Positions 14,056-57,500 are shown, counted from the stretch's first letter. The stretch: DNA of 64,000 nucleotides from Trichinella spiralis (GCF_000181795.1 NW_003526944.1:3176793-3240792), one strand, 5' to 3'. A program made the numbers and translations. Notes: a model not told the origin generated them from the sequence alone.

Positions 14056-16778
14056 TCAAATAAATGAAAATCGAGATCGACCAGAGCTTTCCGATAGAGA
14101 GGCGTTCGTTTCTTCCAAATGCAAACGTTTGCAGATGCTTGCGTACGATTTCAAATTCAGCTTCTCCTCGTCAATACCTTGCAGTTCGTAGTCGGAATAT
14201 ATTTTCTAAAAAAGACCAACAAATCAATGAATAAAATAAAGTGTGCACATTTGAAAATAGAAGCAGCATTCAAAATTCATTACAAATAATAAAAGAAAAA
14301 ATAACTGAATAATGATTATGATAATGATGATGCAATAATAAAAAAGGTTGCTGCTGTTAGTAGAGTTAATAATATCGACGAACAAAAAAAACAGCTCTCT
14401 TCTTCTCACCTTCATCAAATAGCTGAGGCAGGTAAGTTGATAAGCTGACAATGATCGATCGTGCCGTTCAGTCAGCCAGTTGTTAATCAACTGCAACTGA
14501 CCACTGTACCAAACCTTAAAATTATCAAATGTGGAATAAATGGAAATTTGACTGACGTAGTAATTCAAATGTGGAACAATTAAATAATTTTTGTTCATGC
14601 TCGAGAAATGTCAAATATATATATTATATTAATTACTTCGAACAGATGAGTAACAAACAGCTCATCAGTGACCAACTGCCTGAGCTGTTCTAACGATATA
14701 CGCATGAATTCAATGTAACTGTGTCCCAAGTGACTAGCACTGGGTGCTTTGGTTACTGGACGCTAAAATTGTAAAAAAAAATCTCAACGCTACTTCTATA
14801 CTGTTAGTGCCCTGTACTTGTTTTGGCGGTGACTGGGATTGGACAAGCATTGGAGCTTCAGTAACCATCGATTTCACCTGAAAAAAAATTTTCCAATAAA
14901 AAATGAGATTCGATTTCAATCTGATAAAAAATGTAATCCACAAAAACCAACAACAACAACAACCACACATATTATATATGCGCAAAATTACAACACTTAT
15001 GCTTACTTTGGCGAATATGTTGTTCGGTTTTGGCTAAATTGAAACAACTATCAAAAGTGATATTTGAAACTTGAAAATTAAAAAAACAAATATTTTACAA
15101 ATCAAATCAAATATTAAACATGATTATTAATAAGATGATAAGTGATGAAATTTGAAAGGAGAAATTTCCACTACAATTACCGCACAGGGAATAAAAATGA
15201 ACAATAATTAATTAAAATAAAACTTACTGCAATTGACAAAATTGTGCCAATTGGATTTCCTTCGTCATATCTGGCCATTTTCACCAAAGTACTTTCCAAA
15301 ACTGCCAACAGCTGAAAAAGCAAGCAAGCAAGCAAAAAAAAACTGAACATTCGTGCAAATTTATCACTCATGCACAGCATATATATATATAAATAAATAA
15401 TTGTTGCCTTTTCAACAATCAACTTCTCCATAGTTTCCAAAATTTTGTCCAAACTTAAATCCACCGCATTCTGATACCGCTGCTACAAATACAGAAAAAA
15501 AATTAATATGCTTGAAACTGATTAATTGAACAAAGAATAAATTTATGAAAAAGGTCGAAAGAACAACAACATAAAATGAACTACTAATACTACTAGCAGT
15601 ACTACTTACAATATCACCACCATCGCCGCCACAAAGTTTCAATGCCTAAAAAATGGAAAAAATGTCTGCTTGTTATCTGAAGAGAGACAAAAGAGAAGAA
15701 CCAAACAATCGGCAAGCAATATAATATAAGGAAAGAAGAAAATTGCTTCTATTTACTCGTTCTTTGGCGTCGAAAATCACGTTCACCATTACGCAAACTT
15801 CGGTGGGCAAAATGTAATCCGTGTTCCGCTTCGCTCTTCCCAACCATTGTTCAAAAACAGCCATAGTTCTGAAAATTAAAAAAAAACCAACCAACAATGA
15901 CACCGCTTGTCGATAATAATTATTACAATTTACTTTTCAGCACATTTCATAATCATATCCGAAGCCATGCGCTTCATGCGATCCTCCAAATGACTGGCGA
16001 ACTCTTCTTCTGGCCAATGCAAATTGGTGGTAAACGACTGCAACGATTCGAGCTTCCAAAATATATCCTCGGACGTGACACACCCGTGACTGCATAGAAA
16101 AAAAATCCCCAAAATTCAATAGACATCAAAAATAATAACTTGGCAAACAGATATATATATAGATAGATATATTACTTTTTCACTTCCCATTTTTCTTTGG
16201 GAAATTCTTTCTCTATGGACAATTCAATCGAGTGTTCCATGAGATCGACATAACGCACCACAATTGGTGCAAAAATGGCTAACAATTTCGAATGAAAAAT
16301 TCCTTTCTTCAATTGACCTGTGAGAAAATTGAAAGAAAATTCAATCATCAATCTTGATTAATTAATTAATTAATTAATTAATTAAAAACTTTCAAGATAA
16401 CAAACTGCTGCTGCTCACCGTCTTGGCATAAGTAATCGTTGAGCAATTCGAACAGCGGAAATGCGTCCCACGTGTCGGGCGGTTGAACAGCCAGGGCAGC
16501 TTGCATGTCGACCAAAAATAGAGACCAATACGTTTCGGCATGTTCAACCAACAATTCGCTGTACCAAGCAAAAGCCTGAAAATTCCAAACACAACAACAA
16601 ATTTTTTGATTTTAAAAAAAGCATCGAAATTGAAATTACATATACCTCAGCATGATATTCATCGATCTCTTTCAAAAGATCAACGCACATTTCCGCAATT
16701 CGAATCAAATCATCAATTCGAGCTGCCGGTGAAATTCCACTGGCAATACGTTCTGAAAAAGGGCGAAAGAAATAAATT

Positions 16779-29329: not shown

Positions 29330-32300
29330 TCAATGAAGATGGTCCAAGCGGTGCAATTGAATGGAACGAATGTGTTTCGTACCGTCAAGATTCAAATGCA
29401 AATCGAACGTCGAATAGGCAGTATTGGCGGCGATACGCATCGCTGCACCTCGACTGGCCGGACAAAAGCTACCGGGCATCATCAGTTCAGGGCTGAAAAA
29501 GTGGGCAAACAGACGCCTTATTGTACCACCATGACTGACCACCAAAATTGTGGGGCGGAAATTCGGCTCCTCCTTTACCCTCTACCATACCAAAGCAATA
29601 TTACAATAATTTGCATCTACAGTAATACGTTTAATAAAAAAAGTTGTGTTACTTTGTCATAATTGACCAATGTCACTTCGCACATCGATTCGAACCATTC
29701 TCGAACACGGGCATCGAACAGTGGCAAAGGTTCAACTCCTTCGCCGTCAAAGTGTTCCGGCTTGACGTTGCGAGCACGGCTAGCTTCCATCAGCTTGGCG
29801 AACGGTTGTCCATCAAACCTGCCGTAATTCTAGAAAAACAACAAATTTTCTGAAAGACAAGAAAAATCATCCACAATATTTTATTTCTTTTATTCAATCA
29901 CCAGAAATTTAATAAAAAAAAATCTTTTTCTCAACATTTGCCAAAAAAACTGCTGTTTCTTTTTCACAAAAAAGCACTGAGCAGCACACTAGCAAGAGAA
30001 GACTTTCAGATTTCGGACCGCCGTGGCAATGATTCAAAAACATCTACTACATATATACATATATACGTACATACATACGTGGACATTATTATCATTTCGC
30101 ATCTCACCATTGGACAGATTAAGATTGTTCTTAGAATGCAATCATGATAATCACCGACGACTGTTTGTTGAAAACAAACGAGGCAAGATGAGAAAAAGAA
30201 GAAAACAGAAAAAAAGAAAAAAAATAAGAACAAAAGGAGGTAACATGAAGAACACGGATAACTTTAAAAAGCATATCATCTGCATATGTATATATATATA
30301 TATATATTATCGACGAGAAAAGTTGAAATGAGATGAGTTTTTTTTTCTTGAAAAACATGGAATACACACACAATTCATCTTTCTGGCAGTCGATAATGCG
30401 GCATTGAAAATGAACAAATGATTGATAATTTTCTTGTTCTTCCCCATTTTTTGCCAGATTAATGATAGCGACGCTGCTTGATCAGTCGCCCACGACTGCT
30501 GGTCATGGTGGCACCGTCTTCGGTGGAATCAGCCGGGTCTGAATCACTGTCCTCGCTGCATCCATAAGTAACATATTCAGATGCGGCCGGACGTTTTCTC
30601 CGTAAACGATTCTGCCAGTCGTTGCTGCCACTGTCCGCCGCCGCCGGCTGTTGTTGTTGTTGTTGTTTGGACCTGGACGACGACGACATCGTCGGCAAAG
30701 CTTTACTACAGCAGGGCTGTTCTTGTTCGCGTCTCAACATCATCATCTCTTCATCGTTATCATCACCAGCACCGGCATCCTCATCTTCATCGTCATCATC
30801 ATCATCATCATTGCCCGTGTCGCCTCTTCCGCTGTCATTGTTCTGGTCAATATCGAGCAGCGGTTCAGCAGTACGGTCAGTTGCGAGTGTTCGAGAAATA
30901 TTCGAGTTTCCAATTTGACCCTGTGAGCTTCTCGTGTTGTACGGTCGACTGGAGACAGCCGCTCGGCTGGCGGCAGCAGTTCTGGATTCCTGTCTCCGGC
31001 TATTTCTGCCGTTATGTTGCTGCTGCTGTTGCTGTCGCTGTTGCTGTTGCCAGGACTGCAACACCGGCTCAAAGTCCCGCTTGAATTTGGCGTACAACGA
31101 GTCGACGAACGAGATCGACTGTCTGGTCGAACTTCTGGTCGAAAACGACCCCATCGCAGCGTCCATCTCCCGTTCCAACGCTCCAGGACTGGCGAAATGG
31201 CCCAGGGTGAGTCGGCGCTGGATGCCGAGCAAAGACAACGTCAAACGACGGCCCAGTTTCACCGACTGGGATTCGTCGTTGGCTCGGAAAATATTCTGCA
31301 ACAAAGTCTGGCATCGTTCGATCCAATTCGAACCAGTCTGCTGTTGGGACAATCCACTGGGACCCGGCTGGTCGTTGATGAAAAAACCGTTATTCAACGT
31401 CGACGTCGAATCGGCGGCCGCCCCATCAGCCGTCTGGTCCATGAATTCTTGGTAGAGTTGGTCAATTTCGAAACAGTTCGGCCGGGAAATGTAAGCCAAC
31501 AGTACGTTGGTCAACAGTCTGGCCTGGTGGACGATGGTGCTGTTCGGCTCGTTGAACGTGCAGGCGTTCTGGTTGATCCGTTCGACGTCGAATTTCACGG
31601 CCGCCACGCGACGGTAGAACCGATTGGCCAGACGGGCTTTGATCGTCGCCAAATCGCACGGATATTCGATGCACATGCAATACCAAGGATAGACGCCCAA
31701 GTCGACCGGCTCCAGAAACGGTTCGGCAAACGGCTGGCTGCTGATCGTCTCCAAGCCGACCAACAGACGCTGGCATTCGGCATCGCGACCACGGCTCGGC
31801 CATTCGTTCGTTTTCGGAGTGTAGGGCCAAATCGACGCCGCTTCGGTCACATCGAACATTTCGCCGTCGCCGGTGCCGTTGTTGCCCACTTCGAGCGGCA
31901 CCAAATCCCACGGACTGAGGCGATCTTCGTCGTCGTTTTCCCACCGAACCACGATCGACTGGAAATGGGACGTCGACTGGGGCTGGGTCGCCTTGCCGAC
32001 AACGGTGCCGAACCACCAGCGGTCGTCGATCAACGCTTTGAACGAGTCGCCATTGCGCCACCGACGTCTGATCGAACTGTCGTAAAGCTGCCTGAGCACG
32101 ATGAAGTCGATCACGCTCGGGATGTCGTGGAAGCAGACGTAAAAAGTGAACGACGACTGCTCTGCCGACGAACGCGGGTTGATCCGAGTCAACTGCAACC
32201 GACAACTGCGCACTTGGTGCAAGTGGAACGTCACCTCTTTGACCACCGCGAACTCGGTCTCTTCCAAACGCAAACCGCTGTTCCAAGGCAAATCTTTCTC

Positions 32301-35300
32301 TTTCAACTTGTACAAATTCGCCCGCTTCACTTCGTCCACGTACATCCGGTGACCCTGGTGGAAGTAGACCACTTCGTCGCCTTGTTGAGGAAAATACGGA
32401 GATGGTCGGCAAGTGGTCGACGTGATCCAATCGGAAAAGTGGAACTTGGTCAGCAGATCCTCGTAGCGTGCCACGCCGCTCGGCCGCGACGACGCTTCGG
32501 TCGAAGCGACACCGTCGGCAGCCGGTCGTCGACCGCGTCGTCTCGAATCCCTCTGACTGTTGTTGTTGTTGTGTCTGGTCACCCGTTCCTCGTCCGAATG
32601 GTCACTTTCACTGCGCACATTCACCATCGACATATCCGAATACCAGTCGTCATCTTCATCCTCGTCGTCGTCGTCGTCGTCGTCCAAATCCACGTCCTCT
32701 TCGTCATCCTCCTCGTCTTCATCGTTATCCGAACTACCTTGGTAATAATCTTCGTCGTTATCGTCGTCAAAGTAGATAAATTCACCAGCGCTGGAACGAG
32801 CCGTCGAATCGTCCAGCGAGCCGTTGGTCAGCGACGGCCGGCCGAGGTTGGCTTGGGTTCGTCGGCCGCGCCGCCTGCGCGCGCTGCTCCTCGTCCTCAG
32901 CGACCGGGTATTGGCGGCGTCGCCGGCGACAGCGCCACCACTGCCGCCCGAAGAGCCGACGCCCGCGGCCGAGGTTCCGGCACCTGAGCCGCCGTTGCCC
33001 CCTTCGGTGTAGTCGGGATCGTAGTCGTCGTCGTCGGTAGACTCGTCGGCCAGCAGGTCGATGTCGTCGACGCGGAAGCGTCTCGAATCGCGCTCCGATG
33101 TCGCCGTCTCGACTACCCGCGGGGCAGAGTCGGCGGTCACCGACGGCGATTCGGCGCGCGGCGTCGGCAAATGGCGGCTGCTTTCTTTCAAAAACAGCTC
33201 CTCCTCCTGGCGGGCAGTTTCCACAATGCGCCCGTGCAGTGTGGTCAGTTGGTCGGCGTCGAGCGCCGGCACCAGATGCCGGCTGGTCCAACAGCAGAAC
33301 AGTTGTCGGTTAGCGTCGGCTTGGAGGTGGAAGCCGAAACGACTGGGTCCGGCCGAAGCGACCGCCTCTTCGCTCACGAGTGGCAATTCGGGCACCAAAT
33401 ATTGTTCCGAACAATGCTCTTTGCCGGGCACGAACCGCTGCTCGGCCGGCGGATAAGGCTCGCCTTCGGCGTTGACCAGAAACGGCGGTGGCATCAAGTG
33501 GGGCGGCAGTTGGGTCTGCTCGTCGACCACGTATTCAGCTTCGTCGGCCAACAACGGTCGGTAGTCGGTGTGGAAGAACTGTTCGCCGGGCACTGGGGGG
33601 TATTCGTGGTGAAGACCGAAGAACAACGTCGAACCCAACGAGTCGACGGCGGCGAAGTGGAAGCCGTCCGGCGAAAAGCAGCCCTCGTACACTGAACATT
33701 CGACCTCGTGGTTGGAGACCGTTCGCTTGTTCAAATAGCTGTTCACGCGAACCCCCTCGGCCATATTCCAGAAGATCACCTGGCCGTCGTCGCCGGCCGT
33801 GACCATCAAGTCCGGGTCCGACGGGTGAGCGATCAAATTCTGCACGTCGTTGGTGTGGTCGTCGAACGAGCGAACCAACTGACCGCTGGTCGAATCCCAG
33901 ACGCGGATTCGATTGTCGCTGGACGAAGTGACCAGCAGTGTGTCGTCGGCGTTCCAAGTGCACAGCAGCATGCTCAAGCGACGCGTGGTTTCGCCGGCTC
34001 CGCGGTTGAGACTCGGGTCGAGCACCATCGGATTCCACGACGTGTACTGATATTTCCATATTTTCGCCAGACCATCTTTGCTGCAAGTGGCGAAGCGCAG
34101 GCCAGTGTGCGCCCATTGGATGCAGTCGATGCGGTCGTTGTGACCGGCAATGTCGAACGTCATTTCCGGCTCGCCGTCCGAAGGGACTTTGAATACAGTG
34201 ATCGAATGGTCGGAACCGCAGGTACCGACGAACCGACCGCCGCCGCTCACCGACAGACCAATGACGCGGCCGCCGACTTTGGAACGCACGTTGAAGCGCA
34301 CCGGCGAAGCTTCGAAAGCGTCGTGCATGTAATGCCAGAAGAAGACGTTGCCGTCGTTGCCGGTCGACACCAGAACTTGACGGTCGGTTGTCGTCGACGG
34401 CAAAAATTGCAAGTTGGTGATCATGCCGGTGTGGCCGGTCATGGCGGCCACCGGCTGCGCGTTTTTCAAGCTCCAGACGCGGATAAATTTGTCCATGCTG
34501 GCGGCGGCGATCAACGTGTTCTCGTAATTGACGTGCATGTCGGTGATTTGGCCGCAGAAGCCGCGGAACGTGTACAACAGTCGGGCCGATCTGGGCGACC
34601 AGACTTTGATCAAATGGTCATCGCCACCGGTGAACAAGCGTCGACCGGTACGGTCGAACGTGACGCAGCATACCGACGCCAAGTGACCAATCACGGCCGC
34701 TTGGAGGTGGAATTTCGGAAACAGCATCCGGAACGACAACTGCTGCATCAGATTCGCGCTCGACACTTGAGAAGCGAAAAACATGTCGGCCAAATTGAAA
34801 CAGTTCTTCAAATTGCTGGCGACCGGCATCAGCATACAACTGCGCAGACCGGCCACGTCCCGGCGGCGCCATTTTCTCTGCAATGTTGACGACGAATCTG
34901 CTCGCAGCATTGAAAACGGACCAGTGTCCAGCAGTGAAAGCGGCCCAGTCAGACCGGCCGGTGCGAAGCGTTGCGTTTGAGCGATGAAATTTTCCAACAA
35001 CACTGGCAAGTGGTCGTCGCGAATTCGACTGGCGTAAATGGAATGGAACTGAGCCAAAGTTTGGCGCCGTTCGACACCCTGGTAATCGAAACGCAACGGG
35101 ATGTAGCCGGCGGTTTCCAAACTCCGGCCCAAAGCATCGGCCGCATCACCAAGACCCTCTTTCATTGACAAGAAACGATAAATCAAATACAACAAGTGCT
35201 CTTCAAAGCACACTTCCCTGTTATTATTCATTGCCTCCTCTTCTTCTTTATATATATATTGCCAGTTTTTAATTTTTTTTATTCAATATTCTTTAATATC

Positions 35301-36606
35301 TCTTCACTCAACTACTTACTCGTTCACGGAGTCGTGGGTCTGAGACAATTTGCAAATCTTTGGCAAATTTTTGACAAGATATTATCAATTCTGCCGTTTC
35401 AACAGCTCGCAGCAGATCACTGCTATACACCAAAGACAGTGTAGTTCCAACAGCAGTGAAATGACGACCCAAGGAAACTGCTTGCTCGCGTCCTTCTTCG
35501 TTAAGACTGCAATTCAGATGACCTTAAAAAAATTTTCACAAACACATACAAATTACATTTAAAAAATAATTTCAAATTTTCATTTTTATATAGTTGAAAA
35601 AAAACAAAACAAAAACACTTTGGCAAAAAATATTACAACGCGCACTGTTAACATTATTGTTCACTACAAGTAGGCAAACAGAAATAGCTGGCAGTGCTTG
35701 TTCAGCCGTCGGCAGAAGGCAGTTCAGGCGAACGAGCGCACGCTCGCGCGCGACGAAATTGATTGGCCGGCGTGCTCGTTTGAAATTTTGCTCAAATTTT
35801 CAAAAAGAAAAACACCAGAATAATAACAATAATCACAAATTCAAACTTCTATTCATTTATGAATAAAATACTGTCTCAATTATGCAAAAATACAATTTGA
35901 AATGACAAACAACAACATTCCGTCGACAATGGTCGACGAGGAAAAAGTGTGGAAGTTGCTCAACCGACAGCAAGTTACTTGATTATTTCTAAGGAAATCA
36001 AAAATTGAAATTTTTTTCACCAAACAAGTCGACGATTTTAAAGATTGAATGACGAATCAAAATTTCACATCAACGAAATATTGTGAAATTTGACAAATTT
36101 TTGAAAAGTTGGATTTTTTTAATAAAAAAAATTAATAACCAATTTCCAGAATTTATTTGAACGAAATTACCACCAACATGCTAATGTTTTTTAATTTGTA
36201 AATTAAACGCGATAGACCAGTCATACAATTTCACAAAATGTGAAAAACAATTATACTCTACAAATAAAAATTTCAAAAAAAAATATTATACAACTCAAAT
36301 TATTAATAACCAGACCAAAAGAACGGCAACTTTTACGTCAGACAAAGGAGCTCAAAAGCAAAAAATGCTTCCTTAAATCGAAACGCTCAGAAAATCAACT
36401 ATTGCTCTATGAAAAATTTCACCTACTGCTATTTATCTGAAACGAAATGAAACCAAACTATGCACACTTATAAATTATAATTACCTTGAACAACGTGATG
36501 CACATTCAAATCAGTTAGTCCGCTAGAATTACAACTGTTAGGTGAGATAAAGCGGATATTCATTTCTACAAGCTTACTGTCTCACAACTATCACTCTTGC
36601 TTGCAT
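29330..36606 (-). CDS. TIGAR: TIGAR-like histidine phosphatase (PGAM/fructose-2,6-bisphosphatase superfamily), 5 exons, ~232 aa
   Basis: Exons 36606-36578, 36522-36485, 35522-35320, 29829-29653 and 29581-29330 are all GT-AG and phase-compatible (699 nt). Protein: MQARVIVVRHGLTDLNVHHVVQGHLNCSLNEEGREQA...VYSSDLLRAVETA...DPRLRER|NYGRFDG...ILVVSHGGTIRRLF...NTAYSTF...LDHLH*. Contains the RHG, SSDLxR, LRE and SHG catalytic motifs. Mostly missed by the ORF track. Superfamily is secure; the TIGAR subfamily call is from recalled similarity. Confidence 0.88.
29880..29894 (-). terminator. Tandem AATAAA poly(A) signals, probable 3' end of the nested BRWD gene
   Basis: tttatt at 29880-29885 and 29889-29894. 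These are the first canonical hexamers downstream of the BRWD stop and are followed by a U/GU-rich tract. Confidence 0.5.
30459..35231 (-). CDS. BRWD3: Bromodomain and WD-repeat protein (BRWD1/BRWD3/PHIP family), single exon, 1590 aa
   Basis: Uninterrupted GC-rich ORF. N-terminal LisH-like LYLIYRFL; WD40 repeats (GHLASVCCVTFDRTGRRLFTGGDDHLIKVW); family motif EQFFHTDYRPL...DEQTQLPPHLMPPPFLV; PYFPQQGDEVVYFHQGH and cryptic Tudor region RLSPWD; bromodomain EPFLEPVDLGVYPWY...YPCDLATIKARLANRFYRR...NACTFNEP. The paralog-level symbol is not resolved. Confidence 0.93.
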   Translation of the reverse strand: MNNNREVCFEEHLLYLIYRFLSMKEGLGDAADALGRSLETAGYIPLRFDYQGVERRQTLAQFHSIYASRIRDDHLPVLLENFIAQTQRFAPAGLTGPLSLLDTGPFSMLRADSSSTLQRKWRRRDVAGLRSCMLMPVASNLKNCFNLADMFFASQVSSANLMQQLSFRMLFPKFHLQAAVIGHLASVCCVTFDRTGRRLFTGGDDHLIKVWSPRSARLLYTFRGFCGQITDMHVNYENTLIAAASMDKFIRVWSLKNAQPVAAMTGHTGMITNLQFLPSTTTDRQVLVSTGNDGNVFFWHYMHDAFEASPVRFNVRSKVGGRVIGLSVSGGGRFVGTCGSDHSITVFKVPSDGEPEMTFDIAGHNDRIDCIQWAHTGLRFATCSKDGLAKIWKYQYTSWNPMVLDPSLNRGAGETTRRLSMLLCTWNADDTLLVTSSSDNRIRVWDSTSGQLVRSFDDHTNDVQNLIAHPSDPDLMVTAGDDGQVIFWNMAEGVRVNSYLNKRTVSNHEVECSVYEGCFSPDGFHFAAVDSLGSTLFFGLHHEYPPVPGEQFFHTDYRPLLADEAEYVVDEQTQLPPHLMPPPFLVNAEGEPYPPAEQRFVPGKEHCSEQYLVPELPLVSEEAVASAGPSRFGFHLQADANRQLFCCWTSRHLVPALDADQLTTLHGRIVETARQEEELFLKESSRHLPTPRAESPSVTADSAPRVVETATSERDSRRFRVDDIDLLADESTDDDDYDPDYTEGGNGGSGAGTSAAGVGSSGGSGGAVAGDAANTRSLRTRSSARRRRGRRTQANLGRPSLTNGSLDDSTARSSAGEFIYFDDDNDEDYYQGSSDNDEDEEDDEEDVDLDDDDDDDEDEDDDWYSDMSMVNVRSESDHSDEERVTRHNNNNSQRDSRRRGRRPAADGVASTEASSRPSGVARYEDLLTKFHFSDWITSTTCRPSPYFPQQGDEVVYFHQGHRMYVDEVKRANLYKLKEKDLPWNSGLRLEETEFAVVKEVTFHLHQVRSCRLQLTRINPRSSAEQSSFTFYVCFHDIPSVIDFIVLRQLYDSSIRRRWRNGDSFKALIDDRWWFGTVVGKATQPQSTSHFQSIVVRWENDDEDRLSPWDLVPLEVGNNGTGDGEMFDVTEAASIWPYTPKTNEWPSRGRDAECQRLLVGLETISSQPFAEPFLEPVDLGVYPWYCMCIEYPCDLATIKARLANRFYRRVAAVKFDVERINQNACTFNEPNSTIVHQARLLTNVLLAYISRPNCFEIDQLYQEFMDQTADGAAADSTSTLNNGFFINDQPGPSGLSQQQTGSNWIERCQTLLQNIFRANDESQSVKLGRRLTLSLLGIQRRLTLGHFASPGALEREMDAAMGSFSTRSSTRQSISFVDSLYAKFKRDFEPVLQSWQQQQRQQQQQQHNGRNSRRQESRTAAASRAAVSSRPYNTRSSQGQIGNSNISRTLATDRTAEPLLDIDQNNDSGRGDTGNDDDDDDDEDEDAGAGDDNDEEMMMLRREQEQPCCSKALPTMSSSSRSKQQQQQQPAAADSGSNDWQNRLRRKRPAASEYVTYGCSEDSDSDPADSTEDGATMTSSRGRLIKQRRYH
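35695..35790 (-). promoter_or_regulatory. GC/CpG-rich island with CCAAT box in TIGAR intron 2; candidate BRWD promoter
   Basis: aacgagcgcacgctcgcgcgcgacgaaattgattggccggcgtgctcgtt in an otherwise very AT-rich intron; CCAATC on minus at 35766-35761; palindrome tcgcgcgcga. Confidence 0.4.
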
Positions 36607-38320: not shown

Positions 38321-39658
38321 ATGTTTGGTGGTTTCGACTTGGGGTATGTTTATATTCTAATTTTCATTTGTTTTTTAACGATCAACTCTTTTAAGGGATG
38401 CAAAAACAAATTGGGCCGAACAAATTGAGGAAGAATGTAATTCATCGATTGAAGATTCGCTTATATATTCGCATTATCACTTTATTTTAATGCATGTTAT
38501 CTGTGAATTTTTTAGTGGCACTTCCTGAAAGAAGCGAAGAAATCGTGGGGGACGTGAAAACAGTTACAGAATATCATCTGAATGATGAAAATCGTCGTGT
38601 CAAAACAGTTAGCCGCTTTAAGGTGTCAAAAAAGCGAATTCCTAAATCAGTTTTAGAACGTCGAGTAAGTAAATTTGTCAGTATGCACAGAATAATAAAT
38701 ATTTTGATTTCAGTTTTTTCTACATTTAGAAGTGGGCGAGATTCGGTCAAGATGCAGACATGTCATTGGAAGATTTGATGTCAAAAACAACATATTATGA
38801 TGATGAAATCACTATGCAGTTTTTGAGATCTAGAACTGGCGAACTTGTAATAAAATTGCTTCAGTTAACACATACATACATACATACTTACATGTGCTTC
38901 ATTTATTGACTTTCAGTTGGAGTTTGCAAATTCAGAGTTTTCTGGTTTGGATACTCAACGTTCGACAATGCAATTTCGAATGTGTCGGTTTTGCAAAAGT
39001 ATGGATCATTGGTCTACGCAATGTCCATACAGGGATGTGTTTGAAGAAGAAAAGGCGAAGGAAGCCGCTGCAGATGCAGGGGCTCAGTCCGGTGGTGATT
39101 TGCAGTCTTCAAGGTCAGGCGTTTATATTGCTCCAGCGTTGCGTGGTTTGGGTGCCGGATCTAAGCTATCCATGGATCCCCTTCAACGAAGAGGTAATTT
39201 AGAAAAATAAAAATTTTTTGTATAATTTTAAGAAAAATTGAAATACATTTTGATAAATGAAATGAAAATTTTAACCATTAGATGACAACACTGTACGTGT
39301 GACGAATTTGCCCGAAGATATATCTGATGTTGTTTTGAAAGAGCTGTTCAGTCAAGTTGGAAAAGTGGTTCGACTATATCTAGCAAGAGACAAAGTTACC
39401 CAGCGTTGTAAAGTAATGCATTTATTTAAATTTAAATGGGAGATATTGTTGTTATTATTGTTGTTATTTAGGGTTATGCTTTCGTTTCTTACATGAGCCG
39501 GGCAGATGCTCAAAAAGCGATTGATGAATTGTCAGGTTACAAATACGAACATTTAATTTTCAAAGTTGAATGGGCCAAGTATGAACACAAAATTACCCAA
39601 ATAGTTTGTGAACGGGATATTTTAAAGCTAATTTGGTATTTTTAGGCCAAGTACGTGA
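38321..39658 (+). CDS. eif-3.G: Eukaryotic translation initiation factor 3 subunit G, 8 exons, ~285 aa
   Basis: Exons 38321-38343, 38396-38436, 38516-38664, 38730-38846, 38917-39193, 39282-39412, 39472-39578 and 39646-39658 (858 nt, in phase). Motifs: NWAEQIEEE, KTVTEYH, ERRKWARFG, zinc knuckle CRFCKSMDHWSTQCPY, YIAPALR, RRM TVRVTNLPED...KGYAFVSY...YEHLIFKVEWAKPST*. Confidence 0.95.
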
Positions 39659-40185
39659 GTGAATGAATGAATGAAGGATTTGAAGGATTTTACTTTTCAA
39701 ACATATCTACTGTTTCTGTAGATTGTGAATAAAGATATGAAAACAATTCTTTCTACCATCATGCATTAAAAATAAGTTTCATTATATAAACAATTTGAAT
39801 ATTATTAGAAAACTGTTGGTAGAAAAGTAATATTATTATACAAAAAAAGCATATGGATAAAACAAAGTTCAAATGCACAAAATACATTTCAAAGTGCTGT
39901 TTTGAAAGTCTGAATTTAATTTTTCATGGAAAAATATCTATTATTGAATGAAAACACCAATAATTTAAAAAATAACATTCTATACAAATTTTAAAAGTGA
40001 TGATGAAAGACACAGTGCAATTTCACAGCAACATTGTCAAGTTATTTTATGCAAATTAACACAATACAGCCTATGGCATGCAAAGGATATCAATGAATTC
40101 AGGTCACATTGAACAAAAGTCAGTGGAAAATTTGTTAAACAATGTTACTTTATTATTATTCTGCTGAGCGGTCGACACAGAACCA

Positions 40186-43697: not shown

Positions 43698-46597
43698 GAT
43701 AAAAAACGTGAACATTTTCAAAATTTCTGATCGATCTGCATGACCAGTAGTTTGATTTTTGCTTTCTCCAGTTGTATTCATATTCTCTTTGTTCTTGCAA
43801 ACGTTCATTCTAATTTTCATTGCATTAATCGTTGCATTTTTCCAACTAAGCGAGTCACGTAATGTTTTCAGCACTTTGTTTTCAAATGGATAGATAAATC
43901 TGTTTGTGTCGTTGTAAATAAATTTCATAATTACACCCACTTGGATGAGTCGGTATAAAGGTATGCAGAATGTTAAAATTTCATTATCCACTGCTTATGC
44001 GTTACGTAATAATAATGTTGGAAAATTCAATAAACTACGCGAACAACAACAAATTCACCCGGTCGATTTTCTTGTTTAACCTCATCTATCGGAGATTCAC
44101 ATCATAAGCTAATCAGAAAATTCTGCTGCTAATCCTTAAACTTTTTGCACTACACTGAATAAATAAATGCATGTTATCAAATAAAAGAAAAAATACACAA
44201 CAATAAGAATGTGTCAATATTGCATTGGGTTTAAACAATGTGCTAGTAGACAAGTACGAACGAGAGTAATGGAAATGAGAAAAAAATTATTTCATTGAAT
44301 ACCTGTGAATGATAAACTGCCCAAACAACAACAACAACGTAAGAATTTAAGCGACAATTTAGTCTTGAAGATCAATAATCAGAATACCGTGTTACTCCGC
44401 GACAATTGTAAAGTTAATTGTTTCAAAATATTATAAAATACGGTTGGTATTTATTATTAATTCATTTTCATCGATTAGGTGCGTGTATTTTTTACTTTTC
44501 CTATCAACTGTTCAACAATACTGACGGAGAATGAGAATTTCTTTGTTTTTCATTCCCAACTTTTCCACTAGCCGAAGCTTACGCTTGTTGTCATCAGAGT
44601 TCAATTCATAGTTAAATGTGAAATGTTGCATTGTTGAGATTGAAAATCAATCAATCTGGACACTCAATTAACCTCAGCATAGTTGAATTGTTCAAATTTC
44701 CACCTCCACTTTTTGCCACTTCAGTACAACTTTTGCCAGCATTAATGATGCAACATTAACTCGAATGCTTTTCTCGAGAATGCGAACGAATATTGGAACG
44801 GACACAGACACGTTCGTTCATCAATCAAAAACTGACAAGCAGTGATATTTCACAAATTATGCTCATCAAAATCAAAGCAGCTAAACTGATCAATGTTCTC
44901 AAATCTACCAAATTTTTCCATTTGAATACAGTTTGAAATACAAAAATTGAATCCACCAACTATTTTCTCCGTTCTATACATTTTTCAAAATCCATTCCTC
45001 TCATTTCTATTGTTCAATTTACAAATGACGTGAAAAGCATGAAATTCAAAAAAAAGTACCATATATAAATGTATTTTTTGTTTGAATTTTTTTGTACCAA
45101 AAAGTTTAATTTTTGAAATGAATCAAAATTTGTATTGAAGTGAAATAAATTGACGCAGTTGTTCTCAGTTAAAGAGGTAACAAACTACCAATTGGAAAAG
45201 TGATCGTCAAGTAAATTTGAAACGATCGTCATACTATCTTTACCCGAAAGCATTGATGCATCGAAATTGAGAAGAAAATTTTTATGAAAAAAACAATTTG
45301 AAGTGAGAAACATTTGTGGTCAATGAGAAATTAATCATTTTCGACGTTAATTTTTCTTATTTGAATCGAAATGTTTCCGACAATTTTGACCAATCGAAAA
45401 CGGCTCAAAGTAACAATTGAATAATAATGAATTTAATTGATCGTGTCAATTTTGATGAAGCATCACTTTTTGCAACAGTTCAACCTGCTCAGTTTGATTA
45501 TCATAAATTTCTACTCCATACGCCCAGTGTTGTTGAGATGTTTGGTTGATTGTTCGGTTGTGTTGTGCTTAACTGAACAGCTTGAAGAAAATCAATAAAA
45601 TCGCTACGATTTGACGGTTCGCCTGTAAGCTGCTTGCTGTTCGCCGGCTTATTTGCCGCCTGCTTGTCAAGCTATAAGCCATCTTGCATCGTATTACTTG
45701 CTTTCTGGAAAAATGAGAGATTCTCATGCCGTTGTCAATTAGCGCAAAAGCCAATGCCATCACAGCTACGCTTACGCGTGTTTAGCTATCACGTTGCTGT
45801 TGTTGTTGTTGTTGTTGTTACGGTGTTGTCGATGGTTTCCTAGCTGCGGGATCCTAGCGAGAATTATTTCTTGAAATTTCAAAAATGAACCTTCAAATTT
45901 TTTCAATTTTACAGTTTTCTTCTCGTTACGTATTAAATTTGCTTGTATTTATTTATCGTCGATTCGATTCATAACTTGTGATTTTTGTTGTTTGTTGGAA
46001 AAAAAAACAAAAAACACAAGCATTTTAGATATAAATCGAAAAAATATATAAATGCATATATTAAATGTACACGTGGTGCGTGCGTGCGTGCTTGTGTATG
46101 TGTACACGCGTCAGTTGTGAAAAGATAGACAGAGAAGTTTGTGGAAGGAAGAACAGTTGGTGCTTTTTCAGTCTGCCTAGCTGGAAGCTGCAGAGCAGCT
46201 GCTTCATGTCGTCATTGACAGTTGCTATTAGCATGCACAGACGGCCAAAGCGACCATTGTGAGTGCAGAGAGAGGAAGTGGAGAGAAAAAGCGAAAGAAG
46301 AAATTGAATAGTGAACGAGCAAAAACGAGCCAGTCTGAAATATATTTGTTCAGTTGGGAAGTTGATCATCGGCATGGTGCCGGCGCGGGCCGTCGTCGCT
46401 TTGCTTTCAACGTATGCGGATAGGATGTTTTGCCAATCATTCTGCAGACTCATTGCGCAATGGTCACAGAATTTCGCGTTTTTTTTTGGTTTCTCCCTTT
46501 ACATCTATATATATTTTTTATGTCGTTTTTTGTCCTGCTTATCACACATGCTTACAAACGATTTGATTTGAGGAACGACTATTCCACCAGTATCAGG

Positions 46598-49500
46598 ATG
46601 ATGCACCAGTCGTTGTACGGTGCCCTTTGCGCTGCAGATCCTCTCAGTGCTATGGCCGCTTTGATGGACCCACTGTTGGCGAACAAAGATACAACTTTTA
46701 CCAAAATTTTCGTCGGTGGTCTGCCCTACCACACCAACGACAGAACACTGCGCGAACATTTCGAACAATATGGCGAAATTGAAGAAGCGGTCGTCATAAC
46801 TGACCGTCAGACGGGAAAAAGCCGCGGCTACGGATTCGTAAGTATTCATTAACGCTCTGTTCACATTTTTTTTCTCCTTTCAAAAATCTACATAATAATA
46901 TGTCAACAAGTTGCATAAGCATAATAAGACTTGTTTACTGCCCGTGTCCGGGATATTTGCTCAACTGTACCTTTTCAATGGGGCCCATTTGTATTGTTCC
47001 CAACCGCCCCGCCCTCGTTTGCATGTGAGAACATTCTCTTCCGTTCTGAAGCGCACAACAAAGCAGCAGAATGCTGTTTTCGTTTTTCCTCGACGCTCAT
47101 TTTTCATCTCTTCTTCAATGCTAACGCTGCCGCCAACGTACAATTTACTTCCAACCGTCGCTTCTACTGCCGCCTTGCATGTATGTTTTCCATGCAATTC
47201 GGAGTCGAATCTAATCGACTTGCTGCTGCTGTTGCTTTTTCAATTCGACGCAAAAGTTACATTCACAGACAATTTAAAAAGCGGCCCCTCTTAGCACATA
47301 ATGTTTTATCGTTGCCGTAGTTTAATGCGTTGAACACTAAAACTGCAACTTTTTCTAAATCGTCGTCGTCAATTCATCCCCGGCCACATGTGGCTAATCG
47401 TAATAAAATTACCATTGTTGTGTGGGAAAGTTTCAGAATAATTAATTTTGCATAATTCAATGAATTAAAACAGTTTCGAAGAAAGAAAAAGATAAAAAAA
47501 TTGACAAACGATTCACCGACTTTATCCCTTTCAACAATCGAACAAAATTGTGTAAAACTGTTACTTACTGTTTGTCGATTTATAGCACGCAGCGATGAAT
47601 GGTTCTTCTGAATCAGCTTTTCCATATTAAAAAGCTAAAAAAAATAATAATTTTAATAAAAAGTTTATAGTTTCAAAAAATAATAAAAAAATTCAGTACA
47701 AACTGATTTATTGTTATTACTTTAGGTGACAATGAAGGATCGACCATCGGCAGAGCGAGCTTGTAAAGAACCGAATCCAATCATCGATGGCCGTAAAGCT
47801 AATGTCAACTTGGCTTATCTTGGTGCAAAACCGAGAAACAATCTTCATTTGGGTATGCTCTCATAAGAAAAACCTGTTTATAATGAATAAAACTTCTATT
47901 ATTGTTACTGTTCAAATGGGTGTATATTGTAATGAAATTGAAAATCAAGTCTTAATTAATTAATTGTATGGTAATTTTTTGGCAAAAGTTTTTCAACGGA
48001 TAATATTTACTGTTATGAAATTCATTTTAAACCCCAGTTTTGCAATTAAAGTAAAATCGACAGACTTTGTGTATTCTTTTGTTGCAAGTATAGCTAAAAC
48101 AAATACACCCAACTTCTATGACATTCAAAGCGAAATGTTCTTTTTGATTTATCCAATTCATTTATTTACAGGGTTTCCTTTGCCGTTGCCTCAAGCTGCT
48201 GCGGCCATGCCGACATTGTTTCCAGCAAACCGCTTGGGGTAAGTTTAAACATGCTAATTCTATCCTGATCTAATGGAATACGCGTCACATTTTGAATTTT
48301 TTACATTAGGACCACACTAAAACAGTATATCCTTCTCCAAGATGTATCTTAGACCGGTAAATTTGCAATTTTGTGTGGCGCCGTTCGTTCTGTAGTAGTA
48401 TTTTATGCTAGTTGATGTTTTTATTTTGTTTTATTTTTATTTTTTGGTGAGCTTTTTTTCCTCATTGTCGTCGTCTTTATTTTCATGTCATGTATATTAT
48501 ATAGTTGTTTTGTGCAGTTGTATGCGTTGAGACACACACAAACACAAACACACACGCACACACGTCTGCTTTTGTCACGTTTATTGTCGAATTTGAAGTT
48601 TTTGTGTGGTTTGAGTAACTACTTTTCTCACCATTTGCGTTTAATCAATTAATTAATTAATTAATTAGATGAATCAGTTTTTGAAAGGTGATTGTGCATA
48701 TATGGCAGGCCCTGTTTCATAGGAGCCGTTTGCGGTGTTTGCTTGTTTTGTGTTTTATTGTTTAACTGTTGATTTTGCTTTTAATCGATAATAAGATGCT
48801 GCTTTTTGCTGGCTTTCGCCAAGCTTGACGTTCGTCACTCTTTTTCTTGATAGTTGTTGTCAATGTGCTGCTGGTGCTGCTGCTGCTGACTTATTCGCAT
48901 TTGGCATGCAGGATTTGGCGAGTTGTTGCGAGTTCTAGGTGTCTGTCTCAATCTCCCCCTTTGTTTCCCGTTGGCATCTAGCAACTTGTTATATAATTGT
49001 CAGATCCAACGGCACATCTGTACTATCAAGCATTCAAGCTCGCAACCGCAATTTTTGTATAGCTTTGATGCAGCGGTGATTTGCATTAAAAAATTTTTTT
49101 CAAAGACACCCACAGCAAGTGAAAAGCAGCAAAAATCTCACGTGGATATTTCCCTGTTGGTTCAGCCTGTTGTGCTGTTGGTTGATATGACGAAAAAACG
49201 ACCAACTGAAAAGAAGTGAATATGAATGATTGACTGATTGATTGTGCTGTGTGGGGCAGCTGCTGGTTAAATTTTTCTGAAACTGCATTTTATCTGTCTT
49301 TCCAACATTTCTCACTTTCAACCTACGCCACACAAGTGATCATATATATTATAGCTGCTTGCGTTGTGCACACAAAGTCACTATCGCTCAAATAACCATC
49401 ACCAAGTAATTTGCTGTAATTTCTGTTTGCAAACGCTTTTTATGAGCGGTTAGTTTTTGCTTTCTTAAAAAAGCCACCTTTACTACACTATAAAGCATCA

Positions 49501-51519: not shown

Positions 51520-54500
51520 TCAAAGTTCGCCATTAACGATGAGCTTGGGCCGGATATCATTGTCCACCGGAGCGGTGTCCTGTTGCATGCGAGAACCGTA
51601 ATTGACCAGCATCTCCGTAAGCAAACCTTTGGACACGTGACCGCTAAGCATCTTGTAATATAAGTACTGTTCGCCGCGCAGACCGAGTGATCTAAAGCAG
51701 CAGTAAACAAATAAGTAAAGCAAATTTTAAATAGATAAAAGATTTGCTATTTCTCCGTTTCAACCAACCTCATCTTTTCCATGCAATTCTGAAACTGAAC
51801 CGGAATTTCGGATGTATTGCCATCCTGTACCATTGAACGACGATACTCGAGCCAAGCTTCTCGAATTCGCTGTCGCCCTTCTATTACCAACGCTTTGTTG
51901 CGTAATTTCGAATAATCTTCAAGAAAGAAAAAACAAAATTACAAATCAATTAATTAATTCACTTGCAGTAAAATCAAAAAATCATTTATTTACTTGGATT
52001 TAATAAAATCAAATATTTTATTGCCACATAATCGTAACGATCAAAACCAATAGCATTCAGCTGATTACACAGCTTGTCCCATTCAGATCTGCCTTCGGTC
52101 AAGGCTAGAAGGGCAACTGAGGTCGCCTTGAGCCTTAAAATTAAAAACTCAGCTATAATAAATTATGAAAAATACATCGAATATATATATGCATATATAT
52201 ATAACTAGATTGTTTGTGTGGAAATGAGCATTTAAGTTAAAAGTTCAGTATCTACAAAACCTGTATGCATGTACATCGTCATCAGAGTGATGTAATGACG
52301 AAGGTCAAAGTCACACACACACACACACTGATTGCTCCTATTAGCAAACAGGAACTACGGAAGTGTTTATGGCCTTGATGGATATGAAAATTGTTAGCTC
52401 ATTGTCAAAGAGCTTCGATTTTCCATTAACCAACAACAACTACAAGGTCGATGGAGAAATAACGTATGTCAGTTTTCTTGTTTATCGCTTTTCAAAAAAG
52501 TTGATCGCTCGGTTCAATTCACTTTTATGAGAGGAAAAAATTTACATATGTAAATAAATAATAAACATTTTCCCCAAACCTTGACATGGATTTGGTAAAC
52601 ATTCCTGGAATTAATAAACCGCACTGCTTTGAATTGATAATATCTACAGCAGTGCTGTCGAAGAAGTCGGAAAAGAAAAGTTACATTCGAGAATAGCAAG
52701 CAAGCAACAACAACAACAAAAAAGACCTTGAACAACCTTCACGGTAAAATAGGGTAAAATGATGAGGAAAAGATTTTAAAAAAGTAAAATAATAAAACTG
52801 ACAGATTAAAATTTCAATCTTACCTGTGTCCAGTTTTGAACGACACCGTATCAGGAAGTTTTCCTTGCAGTCGATAGTATGTAAAATCCAGTACGTGCAG
52901 TTCCGCCCATACAGACTGCAGCAATAGCATTTGATCATCAAGCTGCAAAAAAATGAAAATAATTTTTTTCTTAAAAAACGTAACAGATGCTTATTAATAT
53001 GCAAAAACACGAAATAAATTAATAAACAGTTTCCCTTGGAAAACACAACAACAGTATGACGACGACGCCAGCTGATAGGTCAGGGACGTCGGACGATGGA
53101 CTGGACCAGCTGTGTGTTTACTAGTAAACAAACCATTGCGTGGTGACCAATATTCCCCCCGGGGATGATGAAGTCGTGAGAATGGAAACAACTCCCATCA
53201 AACAGCAGCAAATAAGCCGACGACCACAACACATGCATATATATACACACACGTGTTTAACCTTACTCGGTCAACGTGATCATGATGGTCATCATGTGCA
53301 TTATACAAATGTCGATGATAAATAAGCATCATCACATCGACGCTGCACGTGACAATGTAAAAAAGCTCAAATTAGAAAAAAACAGATCCCCCTCAACAAA
53401 AAGTTTCACTCTAATTACTTACTACTTACTGTTCTACAAACAATAGATACGATGAAAATGAATAATGATAATTGAAAAGGAAGTTCAATTTGTCAAATAT
53501 TAGACGAATTTGTTGTAAAAATTAGTTCAATAATAATAATAATAATAATAATAATGAATAAATCGATAATAAATAATAAGAAGAAAACTCACAGTGAGCT
53601 CTTTGAAATGTGGACTGCTTTTGGCCCATTCGACTTGTTTGAACAATTCTTGATCAACGCATTGACAAACAGCCGAAAAAGAATCGGCTTGGGTTTGCTT
53701 GTCACAGGCTTCATCCATGTCGTACTGCCAGGCTGGTGAATCGCATACCGATTGGGATAACTGTTCGAGGAGTTCACAGACAATCGGCGACGTGGGCGCC
53801 GGACGACGGTCCGGGTGAGGGGCGATGTTCGCCGCCGCCGCCGCGGCCGCGGCTAACGAGAAGCCGTGGACGGCAGCGTAGGTGGGCGTGCCCGGCTGTC
53901 CGGTGGTCGCATAACCTGGACCGAGATTCATTTGAAAAGCTTTGCTTGTTGGTATTGGACAAAGCGGCAAAGCGGCACCGTTTCCCAGACAAGGTTCGTA
54001 CGTGGCGGACCGAGATTTCGCGTAACCAGCGTACGGCGTGCTGGACGGTGGTTGGGCGGTGAGCATGGCGCCCCGACTGGGCAAAAAGCCGTTCTCTCCG
54101 TAAGCGGCCACGTTGGCGTAGTCGCCGAAGCCCAGTGTGCTCAACGCGGCCGTGCCGAAACCGTGGTCAGGATCGAATGGAACCGGATCGCTGGCTTTCA
54201 GACCTTCTTGTTTCACACCGTTCAGATTACAATAGTTGCCGGTCGTCGCAGCCAACGTCGCACTCTGACCGGTACTACAGGCGGTGGCCGGCCACGTTCT
54301 CAGCTCTTCCAAACATCCCGCACTCAACAGCGCGGCAACGTTGTCACAGTTTGGTACATAGCTGACCGCTTGCAACGGTGCAACGTTTCCACTCTGACCA
54401 AAATAATCACTTGCCGACGGCACTAGTGTCGTTGCCGATTGTTGCTGTTGTTGTTGTGCCGCTAGCTGAGATTGGTAAAATCCATTTGGTGGAGAATGGG

Positions 54501-57500
54501 TGGATGAAGATAAAGTTGGACTTTGAACATTCTGTTCGTAAACAACCGACGAACATCTGTACGGGCTGAGCTTGTCAGCAGAGCACATGGACTTTTCCGC
54601 ACCCAGCGGTGAACTGCTAGTAACCAGCTGATCTTGATGACGCACAACATGCTGGTGAGGCAGACCGTTGTTGCCGGTGAACTGCAACGAAGAACCATTC
54701 GCACCGTTGGAACCGTCCAAACCAATCCTCTGGTACGCTTGCATTCGTCTGGCTCGATCCCGCTTGTACATGGAACCGAACTTGTTACGTCCACCTCGCA
54801 TTCGATCCTCTCGAACGGCTAAAAAATAATTATTAAATCAAAATAAACATTAAAAACTTGAAATAAATAAAAGCATTACAAACATGATCGAGAAAAAAGA
54901 TTTTCTACCAATAAATTAAATGAATTCTTCCACTTGAAAAAATTCATCTCAACCCCTCCGATTTGAACATTTTTCAACAACCAAGCAAGCAAGAAAGCAA
55001 CTTGCATATTCTCTTCTGGTCCAGTTTTTCAAATCAATCCGGCTTCATCAATTCAGGTGAACTGAACAATTTTCAAAGAAACGATACTGGCAATAAATTA
55101 ATTATGATCAACAGTAAGAAGAACTGGATTTTTACTGTCTTCAAAAGCCAGGTGCCAGTCCAAAAGTACAACAATAGCATTATATAACGTATAGCCAAAT
55201 TATTCCCATATTCTTCTTTTTCATTCATCAAAACATGCTTATTTGAATATTCACCGACAAAATCACTTTTGTAATCAAGTTTCGGTTTGTTTATTTCCAA
55301 GAAAACCCACCACATGTCATTTCAATTTGAAAATATGATCATTTTTCATGAAATTATGATTTATTTCCCCCCCCCTCCTACCCCACTGGTCCTCCCAACT
55401 CGATTTGATCCCAAAAATTGATAATATGACAATTATTTTGAAAAAAAAAGAATTTGTACTCTCAGAAAATCATTGTCGTTGTCGACAAATCAGTAGAATG
55501 ATAATGAGAAAATGATATTTCTATAAAAAAAAGCTGATAAATTTCAACAATTGGACTATTGTTCTTCTGTTTTTGCTTATATCGTAGAATGAATGGCGGG
55601 AAAAAAAGTTCAACATTGGTCGACCTTATAATATGGTGCAATGCGTGCACATATTTGGATGATATTGTCAATTTTGGAAAAATGTCCGTGTTGTTGTCTT
55701 TTCACAAAAGGATGCTACTGTACAAAATGATGACCCTTGTCCACGCGTCGAGACAGTAGCACTGTCTCGAAGCCGTGGCGTGTATAGACGGATTTGAGAC
55801 GGGTCAGGGTTATCACGGGTCATTGGGCCATCGAAAGTGCATTTTCGGTACAAGGTCGCCAGTGATAAACAGGAACTGACGAACGCGTTGGCGTTGGACC
55901 GGCTCCAGTTGCGCGATGGCTAAACAAAAAGCCACCGCCGACCGTTGGTCAGTGGAAAGTTGATGGCGCGGGAACGTCAGTTGCGCCGGATGCGGTCAGA
56001 ATCGTTAATGGCCTGCGGTCACAAAGGCCATGTCGGGACGGATACGAAACCAGACGCGCCTGACAATCCCATAAATTCCGTGAGGTCCTTCGTGAAGAAA
56101 AGCCTTCGGGTCAAAAGTTCACCTAACGCACGCTTTGAAATTGAGCTTCACAATTCTTTTTATATTCATTTGCATGTTTATTAATTATTTATATTCGGTT
56201 GTTGTTTGCAACGCGAATTCGCACAACAATTACATATGACCGTCGAACTTTTATACAAGTCGTTCAAAAGAAAGAAAACAAAAAAGTGACCAATAATCAA
56301 GCAGACAAATTGGTTAATAAAATTCAGTCATATATACATATTTGTACAAAAGAAAGAGAAATTGAAATGATAAATAAAGCAATCATGCAATAAGTAATAA
56401 AGAAAAGCAAAAAAAAACTAGTACAATTGTGACATTTCATCCCTTCACGACAACTGCAGCGACAATTGCAAACATCCTGCCACTACTACATATGCATATA
56501 TATATATATGTATATATATTTATATATTAGGGTTTTTTGTCCAAATTAAAAAAATCAGTACAAACTGAAGAAAAAATTTGAAAAAAAACTGTCACAAAAA
56601 GCAACAACAAAAAAAGCCATAAAAAAAGAATTGCATTCAGGATGATGGGCAGGCTAGTAGTAGTAGTAGTAGTGGTGATGCTTTGGGAGACAGAGAGAAT
56701 GATGATTGGGAACTATTTCAACATACCCGGGGGGTTGACTACGACCCAGCTGTCTATTTCTTTGAATAGGCAAAAAACAGGCCACTACCCAATCTACCTC
56801 CAGTTTTTCAACTCTGAGACGACCGAAAAAGCAGCTGAAACGTGCACACGCACTAATGTGACTAAATTTGCCATTTCAGACCCAGAAAATTTGCCAAGCA
56901 ATTCTACTGCTGGGCAAGCTCTTTTTTCTTTTTTTGGGTTACAAAAATTCTGTTCTAATATAGCAAAGAATGGACAAAAAAAGAGAATCACCCTCGTCGG
57001 TAAATGATGTGAAAAAATTAATCAATTCTGGAATGAAAAAGAAAAAAATAATGATTTTCCCATATTTCGAAAGCAAAGAACCAACAATTTGACATGCATT
57101 GAATAAATGTACTTGTGCGAACATGTACTGTATTTTTCTTTGAAAAATTAATATTCGAAAAAAAGTTAAGAATATCAAGTAAAATAAATATGCATTTTGC
57201 TTTTTCAAACGATCATTATTAGTAGAAATGCCACCATTTATGAAAAGTAGCTTGTCAGTGACTTTGATCTATGCATATCTACAAGATGTCAAATAGTACA
57301 AGTAACACGATTGGTCATTTTATCCAAACCGGTCCGATGGGTCGAAAGTTCGTTCCTAACTGACCGAACTGTACGATAAGGAAATGTCCCTTTCCATTTC
57401 TCTCACAGTACATAGATTCTTGCCAATCTTTTAAACCACTCACACCTAACTTCTTCATACAAGGATATACATATGTTTTTCAAGTAAACTCAATATCTAC

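Follow-up and report, generated by a model that had tools for sequence, protein, structure and literature searches.

The window, a stretch of 64,000 nucleotides from Trichinella spiralis (GCF_000181795.1 NW_003526944.1:3176793-3240792), carries on its minus strand a TIGAR gene, and the ORF of a BRWD/PHIP gene lies wholly within intron 3 of that gene on the same strand (Table 1). When the five GT..AG-bounded exons of TIGAR were joined in silico, they gave a single frame of 232 aa with one stop, at its end. The GT/AG alternatives around exons 1-3 were searched; of the two combinations obtained, the five-exon one alone was open. The boundary of exon 1 is identical in the public models KRX53593.1 (P0045) and KAL1236220.1 (P0046). 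Exon 3 ends in CGA/GTAAGT and exon 4 starts with TTTTCTAG/AAT TAC GGC, so that intron 3 covers 5,490 nt (35319-29830). The exon 3 and exon 4 coordinates and intron borders given in the first-pass annotation were thus found to be correct, with GT-AG ends and one open frame, and its claim of a BRWD gene nested on the strand of its host is confirmed at the DNA level.

The BRWD ORF has 4,773 nt without a stop and occupies 87% of intron 3; it is about seven times as long as the TIGAR coding sequence. Of the 77 stop-to-stop frames in the window, the second longest has 686 aa and is an antisense shadow of the BRWD ORF. Introns 1 and 4 of TIGAR have 55 and 71 nt, and intron 2 has 962 nt. The mean intron length of Trichinella is 218-284 bp, so intron 3 is about 20 times longer (PMC4740406).

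Table 1. Features of the TIGAR-BRWD locus (positions are those of the window).
Feature	Position	Strand	Remarks
TIGAR coding exon 1	36606-36578	-	Met1 to the second base of the codon for catalytic His10
TIGAR exon 2 (38 nt)	36522-36485	-	Open frame; public models
CpG-rich element, candidate BRWD promoter	35825-35676	-	CCAAT box GGCCAATC; in host intron 2
TIGAR exon 3	35522-35320	-	Through LRER; includes Glu89
Candidate short intron (74 nt)	35319-35246	-	Exon-3 donor to acceptor 14 nt 5′ of the BRWD ATG
BRWD/PHIP coding sequence	35231-30459	-	Single exon, 1,590 aa
Degenerate bromodomain 2	~31320-31050	-	BRWD residues ~1305-1395
Predicted BRWD 3′ UTR and end of intron 3	30458-29830	-	Tandem AATAAA at 29894 and 29885
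TIGAR exon 4	29829-29653	-	First residues NYGRFDG
TIGAR exon 5	29581-29330	-	SHG motif, His166, stop

Judged from its sequence, the host is a TIGAR orthologue of histidine phosphatase branch 1 and a predicted bisphosphatase. Exon 3 matched positions 21-80 of Pfam His_Phos_1 and exon 5 positions 141-163, while a profile built from 79 homologues matched exons 3, 4 and 5 collinearly (29-92, 93-146 and 150-220). The counterpart of the 232-aa protein in genotype T9 is KRX53593.1. The comparison of the spliced product with the His_Phos_1/TIGAR family, which the first-pass annotation had proposed, gave for the T9 product an E value of 1.4e-32 against His_Phos_1 1-160, and human and zebrafish TIGAR were its best PDB matches both by sequence and by structure. 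The alignment-based fold prediction for this product is a single domain (pLDDT 92.5). Annotated animal neighbours of the TIGAR product were TIGAR-like; its matches in the ESM Atlas were to generic His_Phos_1 clusters only.

Residues R34/H35/G36, R86, E114 and H191 of P0045, which correspond to H10, R61, E89 and H166 in the TIGAR of the window, are kept in 75-78 of 78 homologues. Glu89 bears what we take to be the label of the catalytic Glu in human TIGAR, and an intron of the human gene presumably follows the same Arg as Trichinella intron 3. The catalytic residues of human TIGAR are H11 and H198 (PMC6131595). As had been proposed, the nested gene splits the catalytic residues, with H10, R61 and E89 upstream and H166 downstream, so that production of the enzyme would require the entire inner gene to be spliced out. 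None of the 78 homologues has an insertion or gap at the junction of exons 3 and 4. The identity to T. papuae is 89.6% in exon 3, 91.5% in exon 4 and 89.0% in exon 5, close to the folded domains of BRWD and unlike its linkers, and the host TIGAR is, on this reading of its sequence, one working gene and a putative enzyme. Trichuris suis has an unsplit TIGAR orthologue model of 229 aa, KFD57309.1. The similarity of this model starts at exon 2, suggesting that intron 1 is shared.

The inner gene encodes a BRWD1_N domain, a WD40 propeller, a Tudor-like BRWD_AD domain, and one intact and one degenerate bromodomain. PF25437, PF00400, PF25313 and PF00439 were all above the Pfam cut-offs, and the pocket Asn of bromodomain 1 was aligned in a TFNEP motif. 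No Pfam match to a second bromodomain was found in the ORF, and in an alignment with the nemertean PHIP P0050 the ZA loop is interrupted by a gap of 11 residues and the Asn/Thr pocket has no match. The earlier description of the gene as complete therefore holds for one Pfam bromodomain but is overstated for the second, which lacks part of the ZA loop and a pocket residue. This suggests that Trichinella BRWD would read fewer histone marks than human PHIP. The human protein is a three-mark reader and a substrate receptor of CRL4-DDB1 (PMC8653789). The orthology to BRWD1/PHIP/BRWD3 stands despite the reduced three-mark reader.

From residue 9 onwards the protein is homologous to the BRWDs of other animals, with no large insertions in the conserved domains. 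The BRWD models of T. pseudospiralis have the same start Met and the same stop, and identity to T. papuae is 92% in the folded domains and 65-76% in the linkers. The GC content of the ORF is 57.5%; the mean for Trichinella coding sequence is about 43% (PMC4740406). Four AT-richer GT..AG segments at two places were considered as concealed in-frame introns and rejected. Both places align as protein in relatives, which indicates that the BRWD coding region is one exon. 'Intronless', the term used at first, is thus right for the coding region, but beyond it the 74-nt intron may sit just 5′ of the ATG. All the Trichinella BRWD matches listed were this gene, which is therefore probably its only copy.

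The tandem AATAAA signals lie 64 and 55 nt upstream of the exon-4 acceptor. In the predicted 3′ UTR, 11 of the 13 translated positions at 30043-30005 (minus strand) are the same in T. pseudospiralis, and this segment may be a cis-element for 3′ end choice or splicing. BRWD is modelled alone in that species, and its model of the TIGAR C-half opens with a match to the same segment, which is indirect evidence for the nested order in this species. This model, KAL1228469.1 (P0164), is called 'DnaB-like replicative helicase' at source, which looks like a naming error.

Our survey of public gene models covered 35 Trichinella proteins, one cluster of 20 members being represented by 15; the surveyed rows included neither T. 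nelsoni nor T. zimbabwensis. The top matches were Trichinella proteins, those of T. spiralis being 100% identical over the aligned part. TIGAR-N, BRWD and TIGAR-C form one chain in 23 of the 35 models, and one further model holds TIGAR-N and BRWD without TIGAR-C. The junction that skips BRWD (LRER/NYG) is present in three, every one from genotype T9, whose annotation used RNA-seq exon evidence in MAKER2 (PMC4740406). Four models consist of BRWD alone and another four of a lone TIGAR half. T9 is therefore the only taxon with a full-length TIGAR model among the models surveyed. The order TIGAR-N, BRWD, TIGAR-C was found in nine taxa, T. papuae included. Encapsulated and non-encapsulated Trichinella split about 21 Mya (PMC4740406), and the order shared with T. 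papuae indicates that the arrangement is older than this split.

With regard to expression, the likeliest reading, to which we give about an even chance, is that an internal promoter in host intron 2 drives BRWD, with host exon 3 as an untranslated leader. The CpG-rich element of intron 2 holds the sole CGCGCG of the window outside the BRWD ORF, and its CpG peak of 14 per 100 nt was matched by none of 5000 Markov resamples of the intron. The CCAAT box alone was non-significant (732 of 5000 resamples). Coding exons of the window are likewise high in CpG, and the promoter call is one of composition only. RNA folding was not unusual in the intron-2 element (z 0.17), the 3′ UTR element (1.02) or the short intron (-0.02), and the Rfam search gave one match at E 0.56, far below the cut-off.

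The exon-3 donor and the BRWD ATG are just 88 nt apart. This leaves little room for a promoter, and the BRWD transcript therefore probably overlaps exon 3. There is no ATG between 35546 and the BRWD start, and exon 3 is ATG-free in every frame, so that it could double as the BRWD 5′ leader. As a signal of selection the ATG-free leader is weak, given that Met is also missing from the exon-3 region in 41 of 78 homologues and that synonymous recoding left the leader ATG-free 25% of the time. The BRWD mRNA would start near the CpG-rich element, lose the 74-nt intron, be translated from the native Met as the first ATG after 35546, and end at the tandem AATAAA just 5′ of TIGAR exon 4. From the TIGAR mRNA the 5,490-nt intron would be spliced out. 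In any model TIGAR transcripts must cross the AATAAA at 35283, 29894 and 29885, so that competition between splicing and cleavage is likely; the consensus GTAAGT donor and the nearby acceptor probably beat cleavage, and TIGAR transcripts would thus pass the poly(A) signals.

A close rival, which we regard as possible but hold with less confidence, is that a single promoter serves both genes through alternative 3′ splice choice, as in Su(var)3-9/eIF2-gamma, which provides the precedent (PMC1435931). Exons 1-3 would be joined to the distal acceptor for the enzyme or to the proximal acceptor for BRWD, with cleavage then following in intron 3. There is a second GT 4 nt 3′ of the main exon-3 donor. 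Use of the shifted donor would extend BRWD in frame by about 96 aa, most of them half a phosphatase. With the main donor, BRWD would be preceded by an upstream ORF of 95 aa, and the stop of that ORF would overlap the BRWD start (ATGA). The in-frame join of exon 3 to BRWD, which implies the shifted donor, was found in 24 of the 35 models, from nine taxa and at least two annotation efforts, while T. spiralis KAL1236220.1 implies the main donor and the same proximal acceptor (35245), out of frame. Gene finders favour in-frame joins, however, so that the conservation of frame in the models is circular. The 74-nt gap is AT-rich, in which it resembles the remaining short introns, and a run rich in purines comes after it. 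Against a shared promoter, the joining peptide varies among the models (VKEEEAM, VKQM, VKGLG), the in-frame join would use GTAGTT, a weaker donor than GTAAGT, the N-terminal extension would be half a folded domain, and the T. pseudospiralis BRWD models have no such extension; the CpG element of the enlarged intron 2 would also be left unexplained. If both products came from the TIGAR promoter, they would be mutually exclusive for each transcript; the mutual exclusion suggested in the first-pass annotation is plausible and holds only under that condition. An extended form, in which one TIGAR promoter and donor region would have three outcomes, seems to us improbable. In it the main donor would be joined to the far acceptor for the enzyme or, alternatively, to the near acceptor, which would give a two-ORF mRNA with a 95-codon half-phosphatase and the ATGA overlap at which ribosomes would re-initiate on BRWD; the half-phosphatase-BRWD fusion would arise from the 4-nt-shifted donor. 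Were this true, the sole BRWD would depend on a switch of splicing, poly(A) choice and re-initiation inside a metabolic gene.

There is likewise a small chance that the locus is operon-like, with the TIGAR pre-mRNA cut at the AATAAA at 35283 and BRWD freed by spliced-leader trans-splicing at 35245 or 35522. The AATAAA is present, and an acceptor 14 nt 5′ of an ATG is typical of trans-splice sites, but work in C. elegans indicates that, with a strong donor 74 nt upstream, cis-splicing should be preferred. The polycistronic RNA of T. spiralis is resolved by SL2-type leaders (PMC7668243). BRWD as a downstream cistron departs from such operons in poly(A) spacing, with 38 nt from the AATAAA to acceptor 35245 versus the measured intercistronic 74-213 nt (PMC7668243), and in the Ur motif, since TAYYTT is absent within 100 nt upstream of 35245 and nearest at 35381. 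We consider it very unlikely that the 23 three-part models represent a real protein with BRWD between two phosphatase halves, although genuine but non-functional splice artefacts with all exons were described in the Su(var)3-9 study (PMC1435931). The chimeric models leave BRWD at three places (13, 9 and 1 models), most commonly through the poor donor GTGTTG, which points to a gene finder forcing one gene through the nest. Several of them invent differing introns inside BRWD, and BRWD has its own stop, the same in T. pseudospiralis. The insertion point is one residue past the catalytic Glu89, where none of the 78 homologues has an insertion, and, by abridged Pfam lists, PF00300 was restricted to the Trichinella rows among the 120 BRWD matches listed. 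The full TIGAR-BRWD-TIGAR chimeras in the databases are therefore likely to be gene-prediction artefacts. Equally slight is the probability that the TIGAR halves are separate genes or decaying fragments, or that the window is mis-assembled. A recent T. spiralis annotation does give the halves as separate proteins (P0046; P0044, P0048, P0040). However, the order is the same in separate assemblies of the nine taxa and both halves are equally conserved, at about 90% to T. papuae with all catalytic residues intact, which makes mis-assembly and pseudogene halves unlikely; moreover, the halves abut exactly in Pfam (1-80 and 81-162) and no Ur motif occurs within 100 nt upstream of exon 4.

The Trichinella BRWD entries of nine taxa are thus probably chimeric, and their correction is called for. 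Such entries would distort analyses of orthology, expression and pathways.

As for the origin of the nest, we infer that retroposition with loss of the parent gene is the simplest history. A retroposed BRWD copy would have landed in a pre-existing TIGAR intron and then replaced its intron-rich parent, and selection against mis-splicing would then have kept it intron-free. Of 80 metagenome BRWD loci, we counted the 41 with at least 200 aa of the WD region, the other 39 being too short. Intron-like breaks were found in 33 of the 41 and three or more in 20, at recurring positions. Four long eukaryotic metagenome contigs (L006, L014, L015 and L018) carry a near intron-free BRWD with no TIGAR nearby; the first three indicate that intron loss need not mean retroposition. 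TIGAR was not found near BRWD at any of the 80 loci by tblastn or profile search, most of the loci being short and the two matches being chance ones with E above 3. The 18 and 120 matches listed included no BRWD from Trichuris, a blank that is not evidence of absence, so that the dating of the nesting covers Trichinella only.

The statement that most nested genes are antisense to their host agrees with the 71.27% on the opposite strand in Drosophila, which leaves a minority of about 29% on the same strand (PMC3814207). In the same source, nested genes on the host's own strand more often have a single exon, and Drosophila nested pairs show lower co-expression than neighbouring genes do (PMC3814207). 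Human has 75 nested parallel pairs (PMC2330155). The TIGAR-BRWD nest is therefore a new example of an already known class, same-strand nested genes, and is unusual for its size and because it divides an active site. A nested gene is typically a short, young, rapidly evolving insert in a long intron (PMC5174743, PMC3814207), whereas Trichinella BRWD is strongly conserved, apparently the only BRWD of the genus, and fills 87% of its intron. In the literature nothing was found on a TIGAR-BRWD pair, by searches not aimed squarely at TIGAR with BRWD. Eleven names and accessions had no match in 11 of the 12 supplementary files of the T. spiralis operon study (PMC7668243), where other identifiers may be in use.

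The closest known case is insect Su(var)3-9 inside eIF2-gamma. Both there and in Trichinella, a chromatin gene of one large exon lies on the same strand as an unrelated housekeeping host; the inner exon is intron-free, the arrangement is clade-wide, and retroposition has been proposed for Su(var)3-9 as well (PMC1435931). The two differ in that for Su(var)3-9/eIF2-gamma cloning showed common 5′ exons and a fusion made by alternative splicing (PMC1435931), while sharing in Trichinella is putative. They also differ in that the Trichinella split falls inside a folded catalytic domain, beside the active-site Glu, and that an internal promoter is plausible here. In nematodes, unc-17 (VAChT) sits in an intron of cha-1 (ChAT) on the same strand; the two have an upstream exon in common, and the splice route can be one or the other. 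That pair belongs to one pathway and its shared exon is non-coding, whereas the possibly shared exon in Trichinella codes for the host. Another likeness is elav in arginase intron 3 of Drosophila, an intronless regulator that was retroposed, in this one genus only, into the gene of a small metabolic enzyme. It lies antisense to its host, and the competition over splicing or poly(A) that is likely for Trichinella BRWD does not arise (PMC2529313). The locus offers a compact, genus-wide test case for the splicing, in a nematode, of a 5.5-kb intron that holds a whole gene with poly(A) signals 55-64 nt from the acceptor, where the mean intron of the genome has about 260 nt, and a non-insect parallel to Su(var)3-9/eIF2-gamma. 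Nesting by itself shows no link of glycolysis control to chromatin reading, the coupling that had been suggested at first.

Several other features were observed in the window. Past the TIGAR stop (29330-28925, minus strand), public models splice to an acceptor at 29003 and fuse TIGAR with the next gene. This acceptor is preceded by the Ur-type motif TACTTT (29028) and, further upstream, by an AATAAA (29169). The spacing of the three agrees with that in an operon of T. spiralis, and TIGAR may thus form the upstream cistron to that gene. A long GC-rich open frame of 436 aa without a Pfam match lies at 53527-54837 (minus strand), and a weak match to a MUN-domain exon, below the cut-off, at 14227-14610 (minus strand). 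An RRM exon was found at 46424-46849 (plus strand) and an exon with a C4 nuclear-receptor zinc finger at 58102-58524 (minus strand). Head to head with TIGAR/BRWD, at about 38380-39660 on the plus strand, is an eIF3g gene, with a Pfam eIF3g match at 38869-39207.
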